From contig CANPXJ010000001.1 in NCBI GenBank assembly GCA_947585915.1, positions 1 to 51,730 on the forward strand: a stretch of DNA of 51,730 nt, read 5' to 3'. The translations under genes were made by a program, and so were the position numbers. The notes under the pieces are model-generated. The model was given only the letters and a program-made list of their open reading frames with translations. It did not search any database and was not told the DNA's origin. Positions within the stretch are counted from its first letter, which is position 1. Every line of letters begins with the position of its first letter. This DNA comes from an uncultured Bacilli bacterium. GTDB taxonomy: Bacteria > Bacillota_I > Bacilli_A > RF39 > UBA660. Positions 4,003-30,551 of the stretch are shown here, piece after piece.

Positions 4003-5112
4003 ATGCACTTAGTTGGCATTATTTGTGAATATAATCCTTTTCATAATGGTCATTTATATCATTTAAAAAAAATTAAAGAGTTATATCCTAATTCTTTAAT
4101 TATCTTAGTTTTAAATTCTCTTTTTACACAGCGGGGAGAAATAAGCATTCTTTCTTTAAGTACAAAAAGCAAAATAGCTTTAGAATATGGTGTTGACATA
4201 GTTTTAGAATTACCTATTATTTTTGGTACTCAATCTGCTGATACTTTTGCTTTAAAAAGCATTGAAATATTAAATTATTTTCAAGTTGATACTATTATAT
4301 TTGGAAGTGAAACCAACGATTTAACCACGCTTGAAAATATTGCCATAAAACAACTTGCTCCTAACTATAATCAAGAAGTAAAAAAATATTTAAAAGAAAA
4401 AAACAATTATCCAACAGCCTTAGCTAAAGCTTTAGATAGCGATTTTGATTTTAATAATCCTAATGATTTATTAGGAATTTCTTATATTAAAGCTATTAAG
4501 CAATTAAACCTAAATATGAAATATGAATGTATAAAAAGAACTAGTTCTTATCATGATTTAAAAAGTACAAATAAAATAGTAAGTGCTTCTAATATAAGAA
4601 ATAAATTTAAAAATCAAAAAAATATTAATAAATATCTTCCTTCAAAAGTAAAAGATGAACTTAAAAATATAAATGAAGATTTATTATTTACTTTACTTAA
4701 ATACAAAATTAACACTTGTGATAATTTAGAAATATATCTAGATGTAGATGAAGGAATTGAAAATCGAATTAAAAAAGTTATTAACAGTTCAAAAAATATG
4801 GAAGATTTAATTATGAAAATTAAAAGTAAAAGATATACCTATAACAAAATAAGAAGAATGCTCATTCATATCTTATTAGACTTTAAAAAAAGTGATAATC
4901 TAAATAAAATAGAATATATTAAAATATTGGGATTTAATCAAAAGGGACAAGATTATTTAAACAAAATAAAAAAAGAAATTAATATTTCTTTAAATCAAAT
5001 TCCCTCATCTAATACTTTTAAATTAGAACAAAAAGCAACAATTATTTATGATTTACTAACTAATTCTAATGAACAAAAATTTTTAATAGCAAATAAACCA
5101 ATAATAAAATAA
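4003..5112 (+). CDS. tmcAL: tRNA(Met) cytidine acetate ligase (YlbM/TmcAL nucleotidyltransferase)
   Basis: MHLVGIICEYNPFHNGHLYHLKKIKE signature N-terminus. Divergent from yceD, as in Bacillus ylbM-ylbN. Confidence 0.85.
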   Translation: MHLVGIICEYNPFHNGHLYHLKKIKELYPNSLIILVLNSLFTQRGEISILSLSTKSKIALEYGVDIVLELPIIFGTQSADTFALKSIEILNYFQVDTIIFGSETNDLTTLENIAIKQLAPNYNQEVKKYLKEKNNYPTALAKALDSDFDFNNPNDLLGISYIKAIKQLNLNMKYECIKRTSSYHDLKSTNKIVSASNIRNKFKNQKNINKYLPSKVKDELKNINEDLLFTLLKYKINTCDNLEIYLDVDEGIENRIKKVINSSKNMEDLIMKIKSKRYTYNKIRRMLIHILLDFKKSDNLNKIEYIKILGFNQKGQDYLNKIKKEINISLNQIPSSNTFKLEQKATIIYDLLTNSNEQKFLIANKPIIK

Positions 5113-5118
5113 ATAAAA

Positions 5119-5136
5119 CTTCTCTTAATTGAGAAG
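5119..5136. terminator. Shared hairpin between convergent units
   Basis: CTTCTC-TTAATT-GAGAAG, with A/T runs on both sides. Confidence 0.5.
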
Positions 5137-5239
5137 CTTAAAATTTGATATCCTCTTCAGGCATATACATACCTCTTTTCTTAATTTTTTTCCTTACAAA
5201 TATTATTATAAAATATCTTTTTTATTTTGACAAGATTTT

Positions 5240-8233: not shown

Positions 8234-9514
8234 TTATTTCAAAGTATATACTTTTATTTGATTATCAGGTGTAATACATTGGTAAATTCCATTCCCGTTT
8301 TCTTCTATTGTTTTAAACGTTTTACAAGGAATAAATACTTCATTTTTAGTTACATTGTATATTCCATCTGCATAACTATCGTCATAAAGAACACTAATCC
8401 TTCTAAGGATATCACCAGTATTCGATAGATATTCACTTCCTATATAATCATAAGTAGCGCAAGGAATATCTATCCTATTTTTAGTTACATTGTATATTCC
8501 ATCTGCATAACTATCGTCAGAAGGAACACTAATCCTTCTAAGGATATCGCCAGTATTCGATAGATATTCACTTCCTATATAATCATAAGTAGTGCAAGGA
8601 ATATCTATCTTATTTTTAGTTACATTGTATATTCCATTTACATAACTATCGTCAGAAGGAACACTAATCCTTCTAAGGATATCACCAGTATGCGATGGAA
8701 ATTCACTTCCTATATAATCATAAGTAGCACAAGGAATATCTATCCTATTTTTAGTTACATTATATATGCCCTTTACATAACCATCGTCAGAAGGAACACC
8801 AATTCTTCTAAGGATATCACCAGTCAGTGATCTAAACTCTTCTCCAACGTACGAATACGTACTATATAAATCAGTAGTATTAAATTCTTTTTTGTTTTCT
8901 TGTAAGTTTTGATTAGGTATTTCTGTGGGCTCTGGAGTTGGAATTTGTGTTGGCTCAATAGATGAGACTGGTTCTTCAGATGGAGCTATGGATGGATCTG
9001 TATTTAAAGCAATATCTAAATTTTCTTCATCATCTTTAATAATTTTTCTTTCAAGCTTTAATGTACCATAATCTAATAAATCTATTTCGCCATTTTTATA
9101 AAATACTACTATAAAAGATTTATAGTCTTCACCAATATAGTAACCAAACTTTTCTAATTTATTATAACCAATTTTTATAATTTCTTCTCTTGTAAATGGA
9201 TCTATAAATCCATATTCTAACTCATTATTATCATTATATATTCCTACTTTAAGTAAAGCTATTTTGCCAATCTGTGATAACACATCATCTACGAAATCAT
9301 ATTTTTCGTTTATCTTATATTCAGCATCTGATTTTAAACTATTTATAATCTCACCTGCCGATATATTATTTGTTTGGTCTAAACTGATAATATCATAAGT
9401 CATACTGTTATATGAATCACATCCACTTGCAGCTACTGATATTGTTGCTATTGCACTTAATGCAATAAGCTTTTTACGATACTTTTTTATTTTTTCTAAT
9501 TTTTTATTTTTCAT
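8234..9514 (-). CDS. Lipoprotein with WG-like repeats and four 45-aa tandem repeats
   Basis: Signal peptide with lipobox AASG/C. C-terminal repeats have the form YDYIGSE..S.TGDILRRISVPSDDSY..GIYNVTKN.IDIPC.T. Confidence 0.75.
   Translation of the reverse strand: MKNKKLEKIKKYRKKLIALSAIATISVAASGCDSYNSMTYDIISLDQTNNISAGEIINSLKSDAEYKINEKYDFVDDVLSQIGKIALLKVGIYNDNNELEYGFIDPFTREEIIKIGYNKLEKFGYYIGEDYKSFIVVFYKNGEIDLLDYGTLKLERKIIKDDEENLDIALNTDPSIAPSEEPVSSIEPTQIPTPEPTEIPNQNLQENKKEFNTTDLYSTYSYVGEEFRSLTGDILRRIGVPSDDGYVKGIYNVTKNRIDIPCATYDYIGSEFPSHTGDILRRISVPSDDSYVNGIYNVTKNKIDIPCTTYDYIGSEYLSNTGDILRRISVPSDDSYADGIYNVTKNRIDIPCATYDYIGSEYLSNTGDILRRISVLYDDSYADGIYNVTKNEVFIPCKTFKTIEENGNGIYQCITPDNQIKVYTLK
8318..8857 (-). 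repeat. Four tandem 135-bp coding repeats
   Basis: Units at 8723-8857, 8588-8722, 8453-8587 and 8318-8452. Units 2-4 are nearly identical at nucleotide level. Confidence 0.9.
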
Positions 9515-9634
9515 TTTCTTTTTCCCCCTTAAATAGAAAAAATCCTTTCAATAAGGATTTATAAGTCTAATAATTATATGCTAACCAATCCCCATTGATA
9601 TCGAAATTGTAGCATAAATTTTCTCTTTTGTCAA
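9515..9634 (-). promoter_or_regulatory. Promoter plus about 85-nt structured leader (copy 1 of a shared leader motif)
   Basis: Minus strand promoter TTGACA(9634-9629)-17 nt-TACAAT(9611-9606). The leader contains ATGGGGATTGGTTAG (9595-9581), then hairpin AAATCCTT/AAGGATTT (9540-9560) with a U run, directly before RBS AAGGGGG. Confidence 0.6.
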
Positions 9635-9765
9635 GTCCCCCGTAACAAGATTATCGGGGGCCGTTGTACCCTTGATTTAATTTTCAAAATTTCATAATGT
9701 TTCACAAAATTCATATTGAAAATTAAATCGTGTCAAATTTTGTAAAGCAAATGTATTACTATATA

Positions 9766-16196: not shown

Positions 16197-17081
16197 TTAT
16201 CTTTTAATAAAATTAATATGAGGATTATTTAAAGGAACTCTTTGATAGTCTAAAAACTTTTTAGTTTCATGATTATATTGATTATCTAATCCATTTAAAA
16301 ACTTTTCATAATCAATATCAGTATAAGGCGTGGTATAAGAAAAATCTTGATATTCTTCATAATACAGGCCATTACAATAAGAAATAGCAAAACCATCTAG
16401 ATAAGCTTTTAAAACATTTGAAGTTATCTTAATATAACCATCACTTAATATTTTCTTGGCTACTTCTTCTCTTTTATCATTCATTAACATAAATGTTCCC
16501 GCTTGAGGAGAAGCTAAAAAAGGAATACCTAAGCGATTTAAAAGACATCTTTTAAGTAGAAAAAATTGTTTATAAGTACAATCAACTAAATAATAAGAGT
16601 CTTGATATTTTATAATATTAAAATAATGTCTATGAAAGTAAGAATTAGGGTTATTAACAAATCCTGGTTGTAAACAAAAAGTATAAACGGGAAGATTAAA
16701 CTTTTTACATAATTTGCGAGTAAATAGAGTCGAATTTAAACAAGTTCCTTGCATATCTTTTTTTTGATCTTTATTTAAATAAGTTTGAGTTTTTAAAACA
16801 ATTTGTTCTAATATATTGCCTTGTTTTACTACTTCATTAATTTCTATTAAGTATTTATTTGGAAGTAATTGCTCACATATTAAAATTAGTTTACTCATAT
16901 TTTTTAAATCTTCAATATCAGTTATTTCTAATGCTCTTTCTTTGGCCAGTTGATATATTTTATTCATTATTTTTATTTTTTCTTCTTCACATGTATTCTT
17001 TAACTGGTAATAACAATTACAAATAGAAAGAAATGGTTCTTCTTCTAAATTAATCTTCTTTTTTAAGATATCAATATTCAT
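16197..17081 (-). CDS. Transglutaminase/papain-like Cys-His-Asp protein, paralog A
   Basis: QGTCLNSTLF...HRHYFNII...YLVDCTYKQFF gives Cys, His and Asp in transglutaminase-core order. No signal peptide. Confidence 0.55.
   Translation of the reverse strand: MNIDILKKKINLEEEPFLSICNCYYQLKNTCEEEKIKIMNKIYQLAKERALEITDIEDLKNMSKLILICEQLLPNKYLIEINEVVKQGNILEQIVLKTQTYLNKDQKKDMQGTCLNSTLFTRKLCKKFNLPVYTFCLQPGFVNNPNSYFHRHYFNIIKYQDSYYLVDCTYKQFFLLKRCLLNRLGIPFLASPQAGTFMLMNDKREEVAKKILSDGYIKITSNVLKAYLDGFAISYCNGLYYEEYQDFSYTTPYTDIDYEKFLNGLDNQYNHETKKFLDYQRVPLNNPHINFIKR
16267..16510 (-). repeat. Near-identical 3' block shared with paralog B
   Basis: Long identical runs with 17139-17390, e.g. a 32-nt run gtataagaaaaatcttgatattcttcataata. 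Confidence 0.85.
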
Positions 17082-17083
17082 AA

Positions 17084-17971
17084 TTACCTCCCTAATTTAT
17101 TTAATGGCCTTTTTTGATACCCCAAACATTGAGCCTTTTCATGATTATATTGATTATCTAGTCCATTTAAGAAATTCCAATAATCATCATCCGTATATAA
17201 AGTTGTATAAGAAAAATCTTGATATTCTTCATAATATAAGCCATTACGATAAGAAATAGCAAAACCATCTAAATAAGCTTTTAAAACGCCTGGAGTAAGT
17301 TCTATCCAACAATCACTTAATATTTTTTTTGCTATTTCTTTTCTCTTTTCATTCATCAGCATAAAACTTCCAGCTTGGGGTCCAACCATTTCCATCATTC
17401 CTAAATATTCAAAGCAATTTCTTTTTAATAAGAAAAACTGACTATAAGTTGCATCAATTAAATATTTCTTTCCTTTATTATCAACAATTCCAAAAAAGTG
17501 TTGACCATAACTATGTTTATTTATAAATCCTAAATTTATTTCTTGAATATGAAATTTTAAATCATACATGAAAGCATATCTTTGTGCGAGGATTGTGGCA
17601 TTATAACATTGGCCTCGTAAATCCCCACTAATCTGATATTCATTTATTTCTTCTCTAACTTTTTTTATTATTAAATCTAAAATATCTTCTATATTATCAA
17701 AACTAAAACTTACTTTATTACTAAAAGGAACATTTATTAGTTTTTTACATGGTAAAAATTTCTCCATATAAATTAGTTCTTTAATAATTTTTTCATAATC
17801 ATAAGATATAGATTTTTTTTCATAATCATAAAAATTAGGAGACACTTTTTTAATATAACTACACATGTCTTTAAATAATTTTAATTTTCTATTACTAGTT
17901 AAACTACTATCAAAACGCTCTTGATAATTTTTTATTCTATCTATTATTTTCTTATTAACTTCCATATTCAA
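17084..17971 (-). CDS. Transglutaminase/papain-like Cys-His-Asp protein, paralog B
   Basis: RGQCYNATILAQ...GQHFFGIV...YLIDATYSQFF. The C-terminal ~90 aa are nearly identical to paralog A. Confidence 0.55.
   Translation of the reverse strand: MNMEVNKKIIDRIKNYQERFDSSLTSNRKLKLFKDMCSYIKKVSPNFYDYEKKSISYDYEKIIKELIYMEKFLPCKKLINVPFSNKVSFSFDNIEDILDLIIKKVREEINEYQISGDLRGQCYNATILAQRYAFMYDLKFHIQEINLGFINKHSYGQHFFGIVDNKGKKYLIDATYSQFFLLKRNCFEYLGMMEMVGPQAGSFMLMNEKRKEIAKKILSDCWIELTPGVLKAYLDGFAISYRNGLYYEEYQDFSYTTLYTDDDYWNFLNGLDNQYNHEKAQCLGYQKRPLNKLGR
17139..17390 (-). repeat. Near-identical 3' block shared with paralog A
   Basis: See 16267-16510. Confidence 0.85.
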
Positions 17972-17980
17972 ACCCTCATA

Positions 17981-18712
17981 TTATTTTTTTAACAATTTTT
18001 CAAATTCGTAATGTTCTTCACCTAAATTATTTTTATTCTCTACACTAGTATAACCAAATGGATCATTGGTTCCTGGGAAATCATAAAAATAATAATTAGA
18101 ACCATAAACATTGTAAATTTTGGTTTCATCTTTTTCATAATCAATTTGACAATCAGCATCACCCGTATTTATCATCGAAATATCACTTAAACAATCATGG
18201 CTATCAATATAACGAGGAAGAGTTCTTTTTCCTTCTATTAAAACTTGACGGACTATCTCTAAAACATCTTTTTGTAAATTGCTAGTATTATTCATATAAT
18301 AATCAGCATTAGCAAACCAACCACTATTTTTAATATAACTATATAAACTACTATAATTTTGACCATATAATTCATATCTATTAGCCATTAAAGATGCCTC
18401 AGCTGCTGAACCTTCTAGAGTATATTGCTCTTGTTGACAAAGATTTGCTATGCCTTCTAATTGCTCCATAGACATATCATAAGTAGGAGACTCAAATGTT
18501 GTTTTTTGTTCATTTTCTAAAGCTTTTTGTTCTAATTCTTCCATTTTTAGTTGAAAATTTTGATTATTTTTACTACTATTACTTTCCCCAAATTGCAATT
18601 CATTATCCAAAGATTCTTCAATATTAAAATTAAATTCAGCCTTACTAGCATTTATTGATGATATAGAAACTATAAAAGCAATCATTAAAGAAATTAATGT
18701 TTTCTTTTTCAT
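17981..18712 (-). CDS. Secreted protein with the same unknown domain as 12428-13417
   Basis: Signal peptide MKKKTLISLMIAFIVSISSINASKA. C-terminal domain shared with 12428-13417. Confidence 0.55.
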   Translation of the reverse strand: MKKKTLISLMIAFIVSISSINASKAEFNFNIEESLDNELQFGESNSSKNNQNFQLKMEELEQKALENEQKTTFESPTYDMSMEQLEGIANLCQQEQYTLEGSAAEASLMANRYELYGQNYSSLYSYIKNSGWFANADYYMNNTSNLQKDVLEIVRQVLIEGKRTLPRYIDSHDCLSDISMINTGDADCQIDYEKDETKIYNVYGSNYYFYDFPGTNDPFGYTSVENKNNLGEEHYEFEKLLKK

Positions 18713-18828
18713 TATTTAACCCCCTTAAATAGAAAAAAATCCTTGATAAGGATTTATAAAATTAACTTTTGTCTCTAACCAATCCCCATCAGTGGGATAA
18801 CTATATCATATTTACACTTGTTTGTCAA
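18713..18828 (-). promoter_or_regulatory. Promoter plus about 80-nt structured leader (copy 2 of the shared leader motif)
   Basis: Promoter TTGACA(18828-18823)-17 nt-TATAGT(18805-18800). ATGGGGATTGGTTAG at 18789-18775. Hairpin AAATCCTT/AAGGATTT at 18737-18755 with a U run, then RBS AAGGGG. Confidence 0.6.
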
Positions 18829-26243: not shown

Positions 26244-26320
26244 GTCCCCGTAGCTCAGTAGGATAGAGCAATTGCCTCCTAAGCAATAGGTCAACAGTTC
26301 GACTCTGTTCGGGGACGCCA
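26244..26320 (+). tRNA. tRNA-Arg (anticodon CCT), CCA encoded
   Basis: Folded by hand. Acceptor GTCCCCG/CGGGGAC, D arm GCTC-AGTAGGATA-GAGC, anticodon arm ATTGC-CTCCTAA-GCAAT, T arm AACAG-TTCGACT-CTGTT, 3' GCCA. Upstream promoter TTGATT-17-TATAAT. Confidence 0.9.
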
Positions 26321-30351: not shown

Positions 30352-30545
30352 AAAAAACGTCCTTAATAAGGGCGAAAAATTTCGTGGTACCACCTTAATT
30401 CCTAGTATAATAACTAGCTTATAATCCATAAGGGAGATGACCCATCACATCCAAAAGCAAGTTCATATATCATTATTGCTAGTTTCCATCAACCACTAGC
30501 TTTCTTTAAAATAAATAATATACTACTACTCTTTTTTCTTCGCTT
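30352..30545 (-). promoter_or_regulatory. T-box riboswitch, Leu specifier (CUU)
   Basis: Minus strand elements: AGAGUA GA-motif; distal stem I CUAGUGGUUGAUGGAAACUAG; specifier loop ..AUGAA-CUU-G; T-box sequence AAUUAAGGUGGUACCACG (GGTGGTACCACG at 30383-30394); terminator CGCCCUUAUUAAGGACG plus U7. Confidence 0.85.
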
Positions 30546-30551
30546 GCTAAT

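Follow-up and report, generated by a model that had tools for sequence, protein, structure and literature searches.

Two transcription units on the minus strand of the window, by which we mean the whole stretch of 51,730 nucleotides (nt) analysed here from contig CANPXJ010000001.1 of an uncultured Bacilli bacterium (assembly GCA_947585915.1), are preceded by short leaders that resemble each other closely. Leader 1 stands ahead of a lipoprotein gene and leader 2 ahead of an operon whose first gene encodes a secreted protein (Table 1). The source genome comes to 1.39 Mb in 93 contigs, with 26.5% G+C and a completeness of 92%. A first-pass annotation of the window had placed both leaders at these positions and on this strand, where we also find them. 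We likewise agree with it on the promoters, which it had described as consensus: both have TTGACA followed by 17 nt and a TG-extended -10 box, score 11 out of 12, and are among the four best matches in 10.5 kb. The two conserved blocks that it had seen in the leaders are both present, with 20-23 unrelated nt between them. The first is a 15-mer, ATGGGGATTGGTTAG, identical at 9595-9581 and 18789-18775, which occurs twice in the window against 0.02 occurrences expected from shuffles. The second reads UAUAAAUCCUUAU..AAGGAUUUUUUCUAUUUAAGGGGG in both leaders, with the start codon after it. The resemblance does not belong to a larger duplication: it is confined to the stretch between the -35 box and the start codon, and the proteins encoded downstream are unrelated.

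Table 1. Coordinates in the window of the two leaders, of the genes behind them and of the RNAs recognized by Rfam.
Feature	Position	Strand	Remark
Leader 1, -35 box TTGACA	9629..9634	-	17 nt to -10 box
Leader 1, extended -10 TGcTACAAT	9606..9614	-	TACAAT at 9611-9606
Leader 1, predicted transcription start, A	9599	-	7th nt past -10 box
Leader 1, invariant block AUGGGGAUUGGUUAG	9581..9595	-	presumed sensor/recognition site
Leader 1, antiterminator 5' strand UCAAUGGGGAUU	9587..9598	-	
Leader 1, antiterminator 3' strand AAUCCUUAUUGA	9548..9559	-	terminator 5' arm plus loop
Leader 1, terminator hairpin AAAUCCUU-AUUGA-AAGGAUUU	9540..9560	-	-6.4 kcal/mol
Leader 1, U-run UUUCUAUUU	9531..9539	-	3' of hairpin
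Leader 1, ribosome-binding site AAGGGGG	9524..9530	-	
Regulated gene 1: 426-residue lipoprotein, family B	8234..9514	-	four tandem repeats
Leader 2, -35 box TTGACA	18823..18828	-	17 nt to -10 box
Leader 2, extended -10 TGaTATAGT	18800..18808	-	TATAGT at 18805-18800
Leader 2, predicted transcription start, A	18793	-	
Leader 2, invariant block AUGGGGAUUGGUUAG	18775..18789	-	
Leader 2, antiterminator 5' strand UGAUGGGGAUU	18781..18791	-	UG where leader 1 has CA
Leader 2, antiterminator 3' strand AAUCCUUAUCA	18744..18754	-	loop CA for UG, compensates 5' strand
Leader 2, terminator hairpin AAAUCCUU-AUC-AAGGAUUU	18737..18755	-	-5.7 kcal/mol
Leader 2, U-run UUUUCUAUUU	18727..18736	-	
Leader 2, ribosome-binding site AAGGGGG	18720..18726	-	
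Regulated operon 2: secreted 243-residue protein, then paralogous 295- and 294-residue proteins	16197..18712	-	
T-box leader	30365-30548	-	Rfam RF00230, 99 bits, canonical
Transfer RNA (tRNA) gene	26244-26317	+	Rfam

The first-pass annotation knew the leader only as a twin pair, whereas the source genome carries five copies (in what follows, C, G and L numbers denote contigs of the source genome, genomes, and leader copies or loci as labelled in this analysis). Two of them lie on C1, one at C3:28998-29102, one at C54:10087-10189, and one is split between C71 and C62. Both of the latter contigs start partway through the leader, in a stretch of 67 nt that does not differ from leader 1. They are probably one locus, C71 holding the promoter side and C62 a gene for a lipoprotein of 212 residues, the assembly having evidently broken there at the repeated leader.

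The search of the genome and its relatives with a covariance model, which had been suggested as a check, indeed brought to light more members as well as compensatory changes. The model was made from 14 copies and run on about 230 genomes. It found one to seven copies in eight of the nine species of the same genus, three copies in a second genus (G008), and single or weaker copies in a few further genera of the same bacterial family (G030, G118, G164 and others), whereas the motif was not found in the sampled genomes of 23 other families of the class. Since genomes were sampled and many are incomplete, such counts mean 'not found' rather than 'absent'. Within the bacterial family, 15 of 90 genomes have the motif. 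The 33 strong copies, from 12 genomes, share one common layout. Simple patterns performed far worse than the covariance model: matches to a one-mismatch pattern outside the genus were mostly chance ones inside coding sequence, and a scan of 185,000 genomes with the exact pattern gave mostly chance 15-mer matches, with at least six real copies among the matches listed. The named records of the group are metagenome genomes of uncultured gut 'Bacilli' or 'Tenericutes', one of them from rabbit.

The leader corresponds to no known family in Rfam. Searching the whole window against Rfam 15 at gathering scores gave only the T-box leader and the tRNA gene of Table 1, both elsewhere, and searching both leaders at E<=10 gave only chance-level matches far below the gathering scores. 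A literature search for the block sequence returned unrelated papers only.

The elements come in the same order in the copies: a near-consensus promoter, the block, an AU-rich linker, a hairpin with its U-run, and usually a GGGGG ribosome-binding site. The promoter has the form TTGACA, 17 nt and usually TGnTAnnnT, and the distance from the -10 box to the block is exactly 10 nt in nearly all of the 33 strong copies. The seventh nt past the -10 box is a purine in 14 of the 14 first copies (A in 13), and we infer that transcription starts at this position. The RNA is then predicted to begin with A(U/C)(C/U)(A/G), followed by the block (A/G)UGGGGAUUGGUU(A/G)(A/G). Outside the terminator, conservation is confined to these ~19 nt at the 5' end, and the linker, of 10 to ~40 nt, has no conserved sequence. 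The leader is roughly 70 nt long, and the terminated transcript would measure ~65-70 nt. Orthologous leaders from one syntenic locus in six to seven species have the same conservation footprint and keep the terminator, the U-run and the antiterminator, although their linkers have fully diverged. The GGGGG ribosome-binding site is found ahead of just 2.9% of the open reading frames (ORFs) of the source genome, whose usual site is AGGAGG or GGTGA. This site (9524-9530, 18720-18726 and most copies) resembles the GGGG of the block, and the same factor might therefore bind there and block translation.

The pairing proposed by the first-pass annotation between the first block and the left arm and loop of the terminator stands, and related copies carry compensatory changes in it, but the helix is longer than the 9 base pairs (bp) then described. 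RNA nt 2-13 pair with the terminator 5' arm and loop; with the first nucleotides of the RNA and the whole terminator loop taking part, the antiterminator reaches 12 bp in leader 1 (UCAAUGGGGAUU paired to AAUCCUUAUUGA) and 11 bp in leader 2. In the 33 strongest copies, 92.4% of the cells of the 11 pairs are paired and six of the 11 pairs have changed on both sides (16 cells), a figure reached by none of 500 shuffles, while sliding the partners by one to three columns leaves 36-63% paired. A structure-blind MAFFT alignment of 14 copies gave 93.3% paired and three pairs changed on both sides. For example, where leader 1 has CA:UG, leader 2 has UG:CA and the C54 copy UG:CG; at the first base of the block (the A of AUG), L201, L206, L191 and L210 have G-C instead of A-U; and in L188, L190 and L128, a U-A pair is replaced by G-C or G-U. 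Several of these changes clearly arose independently. The block itself barely changes, whereas the terminator arm varies yet complements its GGGG through G-C or G-U pairs, which makes the block the constrained partner. Another pairing considered, a 5' hairpin UCAAU-GGGG-AUUGG, fits every variant (92.5% paired), but its changes are one-sided wobble changes and it does no better than shuffles.

The interpretation of the second block as an intrinsic terminator is supported. A hairpin and a U-run are present in every copy, and folding each of 31 distinct terminator regions separately gave hairpins of 6-12 bp followed by U-runs; a consensus terminator scan, however, does not flag them, because the stems are AU-rich. 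These stems differ from copy to copy (AUCCUU/AAGGAU, GACUCCA/UGGAGUU, GAGUCCU/AGGACUU, GUUCUC/GAGAGC, AUAUCUUU/GAGGAUAU). RNAalifold produced no consensus from the MAFFT-aligned terminator regions because the loops vary in length and so put the 3' arms out of register. In 30 of the 33 copies the antiterminator surpasses the terminator in stability (on average -10.9 against -7.2 kcal/mol). Over the full leader, the two folds differ little in energy, and which of them is the minimum-energy fold varies from copy to copy. As the antiterminator is the more stable helix and can form once the arm and the loop have been made, read-through should be the default. Conservation of the terminator then makes sense only if something withholds the 5' strand.

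The copies therefore have in common a layout of promoter, block, terminator and antiterminator, which is conserved and covaries, and the attenuator arrangement of a terminator with a competing antiterminator, as proposed in the first-pass annotation, holds. Judging from its aligned sequences, the leader is a real, conserved and previously undescribed terminator/antiterminator family with covariation support. Attenuators are a known kind of device; the sequence family and its compact 5'-terminal design are new. Among the possible modes of action, we lean, with moderate confidence, towards a lineage-restricted, multi-copy family of transcription attenuators that would be switched off when a factor masks the 5' block. 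A strong promoter of the housekeeping type would start the RNA at an A, four nt before the block. About 40-50 nt later, the polymerase would make the terminator 5' arm and loop, complementary to RNA nt 2-13, and the antiterminator, being more stable, would form before the terminator 3' arm exists, so that transcription would run into the gene. A putative trans-acting factor would recognize the invariant 5' block, perhaps folded into a small hairpin whose loop is GGGG. Its binding would withhold the 5' strand, the terminator would fold, and transcription would stop in vivo after ~65-70 nt. Because the same block stands ahead of 3-7 genes per genome, one signal would control the whole set and would jointly shut down genes for poorly conserved lipoproteins and for secreted and surface proteins.

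The effector would be a factor of the repressor type, the likeliest candidate being an RNA-binding protein specific to this lineage. A protein is favoured because Bacilli usually employ one for this purpose (TRAP, PyrR), and because the invariant site, asymmetric and of 13-15 nt, tolerates purine swaps and the lengthening of G4 to G5. More tentatively, the 15-19-nt 5' block could be the entire sensor of a switch of a new kind, either as the RNA operator of a lineage-specific repressor or as a tiny binding site for a ligand or an abundant RNA. If this were true, this bacterial family of small-genome gut Bacilli would switch fast-evolving surface and secreted proteins in concert.

Several points weigh against an attenuator controlled by such a factor. 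The start site and termination are predicted. Most copies come from a single genus, and relatedness inflates the shuffle statistics; moreover, the 33-copy alignment was fitted to the structure that it serves to evaluate. The terminator, which the consensus scan leaves unflagged, is weak and AU-rich, at about -6 kcal/mol and with two G-C pairs only. At the 5' end, the hairpin to which a factor might attach has a marginal stability of -1.4 to -4.3 kcal/mol, and being so weak it would need help from the bound factor. Finally, no effector came up among the candidates sought in the 92%-complete genome. Neither CsrA (PF02599) nor CAT_RBD (PF03123) was found in it, although control genomes gave matches to both, and it has a single NusG N-terminal domain, a second NusG not being found.

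These searches bear on known classes of regulation. We set aside the CsrA class for lack of a PF02599 match; GGA-like sites are present in the block, the terminator 3' arm and the ribosome-binding site. The ribonucleic antiterminator (RAT) class of BglG, LicT and SacY was rejected on the same grounds for PF03123, and there are no phosphotransferase system (PTS) genes downstream of the leaders. Processive antitermination of the LoaP type was rejected in view of the single NusG N-terminal domain. A search for ANTAR (PF03861) gave no match in the genome, but none in any control genome either, and the two-hexaloop ANTAR RNA motif is not present in the leader sequences. No regulator gene was found to recur beside the copies.

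In its mode of action, the proposed attenuator seems closest to the protein-operated attenuators of Bacillus. In the trp (TRAP) and pyr (PyrR) systems of Bacillus subtilis, a protein sequesters the 5' part of a default antiterminator, which allows the terminator to form, and one protein controls several units. Here, too, a terminator competes with an upstream default antiterminator, and a trans-acting protein is proposed. Nevertheless, the leaders contain neither the (G/U)AG triplet repeats of TRAP targets nor a PyrR binding loop, but one 15-nt recognition block at the extreme 5' end. They have no TRAP-like or PyrR-like partner identified here, and their targets are orphan envelope proteins rather than a biosynthetic pathway. 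As an example of a G-rich 5' end that disarms a terminator, pyrG of B. subtilis appears to be the closest parallel. There, extra 5' G residues, added by reiterative transcription at +1, pair with the pyrimidine-rich 5' arm of the terminator. In both cases, the 5' G-run of the transcript pairs with a C/U-rich terminator 5' arm through G-C and G-U pairs; in our leaders, however, the G-run is encoded, at +7 to +10, the helix takes in flanking bases and the terminator loop, and nothing points to the sensing of cytidine triphosphate (CTP). The T-box (RF00230) is also a terminator/antiterminator switch of Bacilli with a G-rich antiterminator 5' strand, and the UGGN that follows this strand in the leaders, with N variable (U, G, C), recalls the T-box bulge. 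Unlike T-boxes, the leaders have no Stem I, specifier loop or second antiterminator helix, and their downstream genes are not related to aminoacyl-tRNA. With 1 nt between the start of the RNA and the antiterminator, a Stem I would have no space. The T-box was rejected, as cmscan gave no T-box match on either leader, though the model finds the true T-box of the window.

It is unlikely that the switch is operated by the ribosome instead. The RNA contains a near-leaderless mini-ORF, AUG-GGG-AUU-GGU-UAG (Met-Gly-Ile-Gly-stop), whose AUG lies 5 nt from the 5' end. A ribosome on this frame would cover the antiterminator 5' strand and the terminator would form, whereas failure of initiation, with ribosomes scarce or inhibited, would let the antiterminator form and the genes be expressed. 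The constant 10 nt from the -10 box to the AUG would suit this scheme, as would the fact that the block starts with AUG or GUG and usually closes with an in-frame stop. Certain variants are silent (GGU to GGG or GGC, AUU to AUA, UAG to UAA or UGA), a copy that has lost one base (L213) has its stop one codon later, and a 3-nt insertion in L218 keeps the frame. However, all these silent changes are neutral for the RNA pairings too. The stop position is merely U-purine-purine: with a purine at each of the last two positions of the block, three of four possible combinations give a stop by default, and UGG, which is no stop, has arisen about as often as UAA or UGA (L200, L207, L211). Ribosomes on the UGG copies would read 11-14 or more codons, into the terminator, which inverts the logic. 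L209, L203 and L217 have lost the frame through the insertion of one base, and at the syntenic locus the four-codon frame exists in two of the five distinct orthologous leaders, both helices in all five. Leaderless genes are rare in any case, with two doubtful cases among 1025 ORFs. There is no codon theme and there are no regulatory codons matching a pathway; as any ribosome position masks the 5' strand, the codons could not sense an amino acid. Known leader-peptide attenuators include those of the trpL/hisL type and drug-sensing ones such as those of ermC and cat. The leaders share with them a short frame that overlaps the antiterminator strand upstream of the terminator, but with only four sense codons, no run of regulatory codons and a frame that is not conserved among orthologues.

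A riboswitch, in which a metabolite, a second messenger or an ion would bind to the 5' block by itself or jointly with the antiterminator helix junction and so decide between antiterminator and terminator, is quite improbable. Conserved sequence overlapping a terminator, with no protein partner seen, is the layout of an orphan riboswitch candidate, and two folds of nearly equal energy over the full leader would suit a ligand-controlled switch. The control of surface-protein genes by multiple copies also recalls the cyclic di-GMP (c-di-GMP) riboswitches of Clostridioides difficile, which precede many genes for adhesins, pili and surface proteins, and the genome encodes one GGDEF protein. Those riboswitches, however, have aptamers of ~90 nt and are in Rfam, whereas the leaders have no conserved domain of aptamer size and match no riboswitch class known to Rfam. 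Besides the terminator, only ~19 nt are conserved, with a linker variable in length and sequence, which makes a small-molecule aptamer unlikely; to our knowledge, the smallest natural aptamers are of ~34 nt. The regulated genes have no common metabolic theme. GGDEF proteins occur in 88 of the 90 genomes of the family and the motif in 15, so the two show no correlation, and a link to c-di-GMP was rejected.

In two copies, that on C54 and L199 (G208:C13), the terminator is not directly followed by a ribosome-binding site or a gene, and a role in trans of the short RNA is therefore possible. Behind the C54 copy there is a convergent terminator and no gene; behind L199, a second consensus promoter follows ~20 nt on, and then a gene for a surface protein of 382 residues with an NPQTG sorting signal. 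Nevertheless, we regard as very unlikely that the leaders are a family of small RNAs, whose terminated transcripts of ~65-70 nt would act in trans with the free 5' end as seed, the copies ahead of genes being by-products or dual-function leaders. The strong promoters and the position of the conserved sequence at the extreme 5' end, like many small-RNA seeds, would agree with such a role. Against it, 31 of the 33 strong copies stand directly ahead of a ribosome-binding site and a gene, the covariation of the antiterminator makes sense only if read-through matters, and the genome offers no convincing complementary target beyond the terminator arms of the leaders themselves. A trans-acting antisense RNA was rejected after genome scans by mismatch and by duplex energy gave only the leaders' own opposite strands and scattered matches in coding sequence. 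The 3' end of 16S ribosomal RNA was not found; the assembly apparently lacks the ribosomal RNA genes.

Least probable of all is a duplicated promoter/leader cassette with no regulation at the RNA level, in which the block would be a DNA operator or merely inherited and the hairpin only an insulator or a stabilizer of the messenger RNA 5' end: the block does lie at +5 to +19, the classic position of a repressor roadblock, at constant spacing from the -10 box, its CAAT-GGGG-ATTG is a DNA palindrome, and a helix from nt 2 would protect the 5' end of the messenger, but where the left half of the palindrome varies, the matching change lies not in the right half but in the terminator loop 45 nt away, these changes keep G-U pairs that exist only in RNA, insertions from G4 to G5 are tolerated though they would shift the spacing of an operator, and terminator, U-run and antiterminator are all kept across species with fully diverged linkers.

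The idea that the leaders control envelope or secreted proteins, put forward in the first-pass annotation, is borne out by the wider set: the genes behind the copies encode mostly lipoproteins and secreted, membrane or surface proteins. These proteins are mutually unrelated and mostly exported, and Pfam gives nothing significant for nearly all of them. Family A is a secreted, cysteine-rich protein of ~295 residues at the syntenic locus in seven species. Family B, found behind the leader in five genomes, consists of tandem-repeat lipoproteins and includes the gene behind leader 1. Its 426-residue product has four tandem repeats of ~45 residues (YDYIGSE..TGDILRRISVPSDDSY..GIYNVTKN.IDIPC) and in Pfam just a weak match to Cloacin_immun, and relatives with two to four repeats are preceded by this leader in another four genomes of the genus. 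There is also a kinase-like family. The many singletons include membrane proteins, the 243-residue secreted protein of operon 2 with its 295- and 294-residue paralogues, and two proteins with, respectively, a glucosaminidase-like and a Fic-like motif, both assigned by eye only. The operon 2 proteins (243, 295 and 294 residues) have no Pfam match.

Almost nothing is known of gene regulation in uncultured gut Bacilli with small genomes. The same leader on several genes per genome would define a regulon of poorly conserved lipoproteins and of secreted, sortase-anchored and enzyme-like proteins, those most likely to meet the host, phages and neighbouring cells. The design is compact, with an antiterminator built from the transcript's own 5' end and a putative 'sensor' of ~19 conserved nt. 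Identification of whatever binds the block would probably reveal either an RNA-binding regulator not yet known or an aptamer of very small size, and the leader is a candidate for a new Rfam family. Moreover, identical leader copies split contigs, which accounts for assembly breaks in these genomes.

Some further observations concern the surroundings of the copies. Three paralogues of 236-295 residues with no Pfam match are encoded at 17084-17971 and 16197-17081 of the window and at locus L179 774-1484 (C54). Two of them belong to operon 2, and the third is encoded immediately ahead of the stand-alone C54 leader. They share a block like YLIDATYSQFFLLKRNC, and conserved Cys, His and Asp residues recall papain-like or transglutaminase-like enzymes. 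A palindromic element of ~75 nt, GATTTAATTTTCAA ... TTGAAAATTAAATC, lies just upstream of leader 1 (window 9660-9740, minus strand), adjoins a G+C-rich hairpin, and is found again, reversed, upstream of the C71 leader copy (C71 ~150-230); perhaps this is a small repeat element, one that accompanies the promoter cassette or inserts beside it. On C37, at ~4990-5150, a promoter has a G9 tract in its spacer, like two G9 promoters in the window, and just upstream lies a G+C-rich stretch resembling the 3' portion of a gene for a structured RNA. A 16-nt complement of the leader block overlaps the -35 box there, probably by chance.

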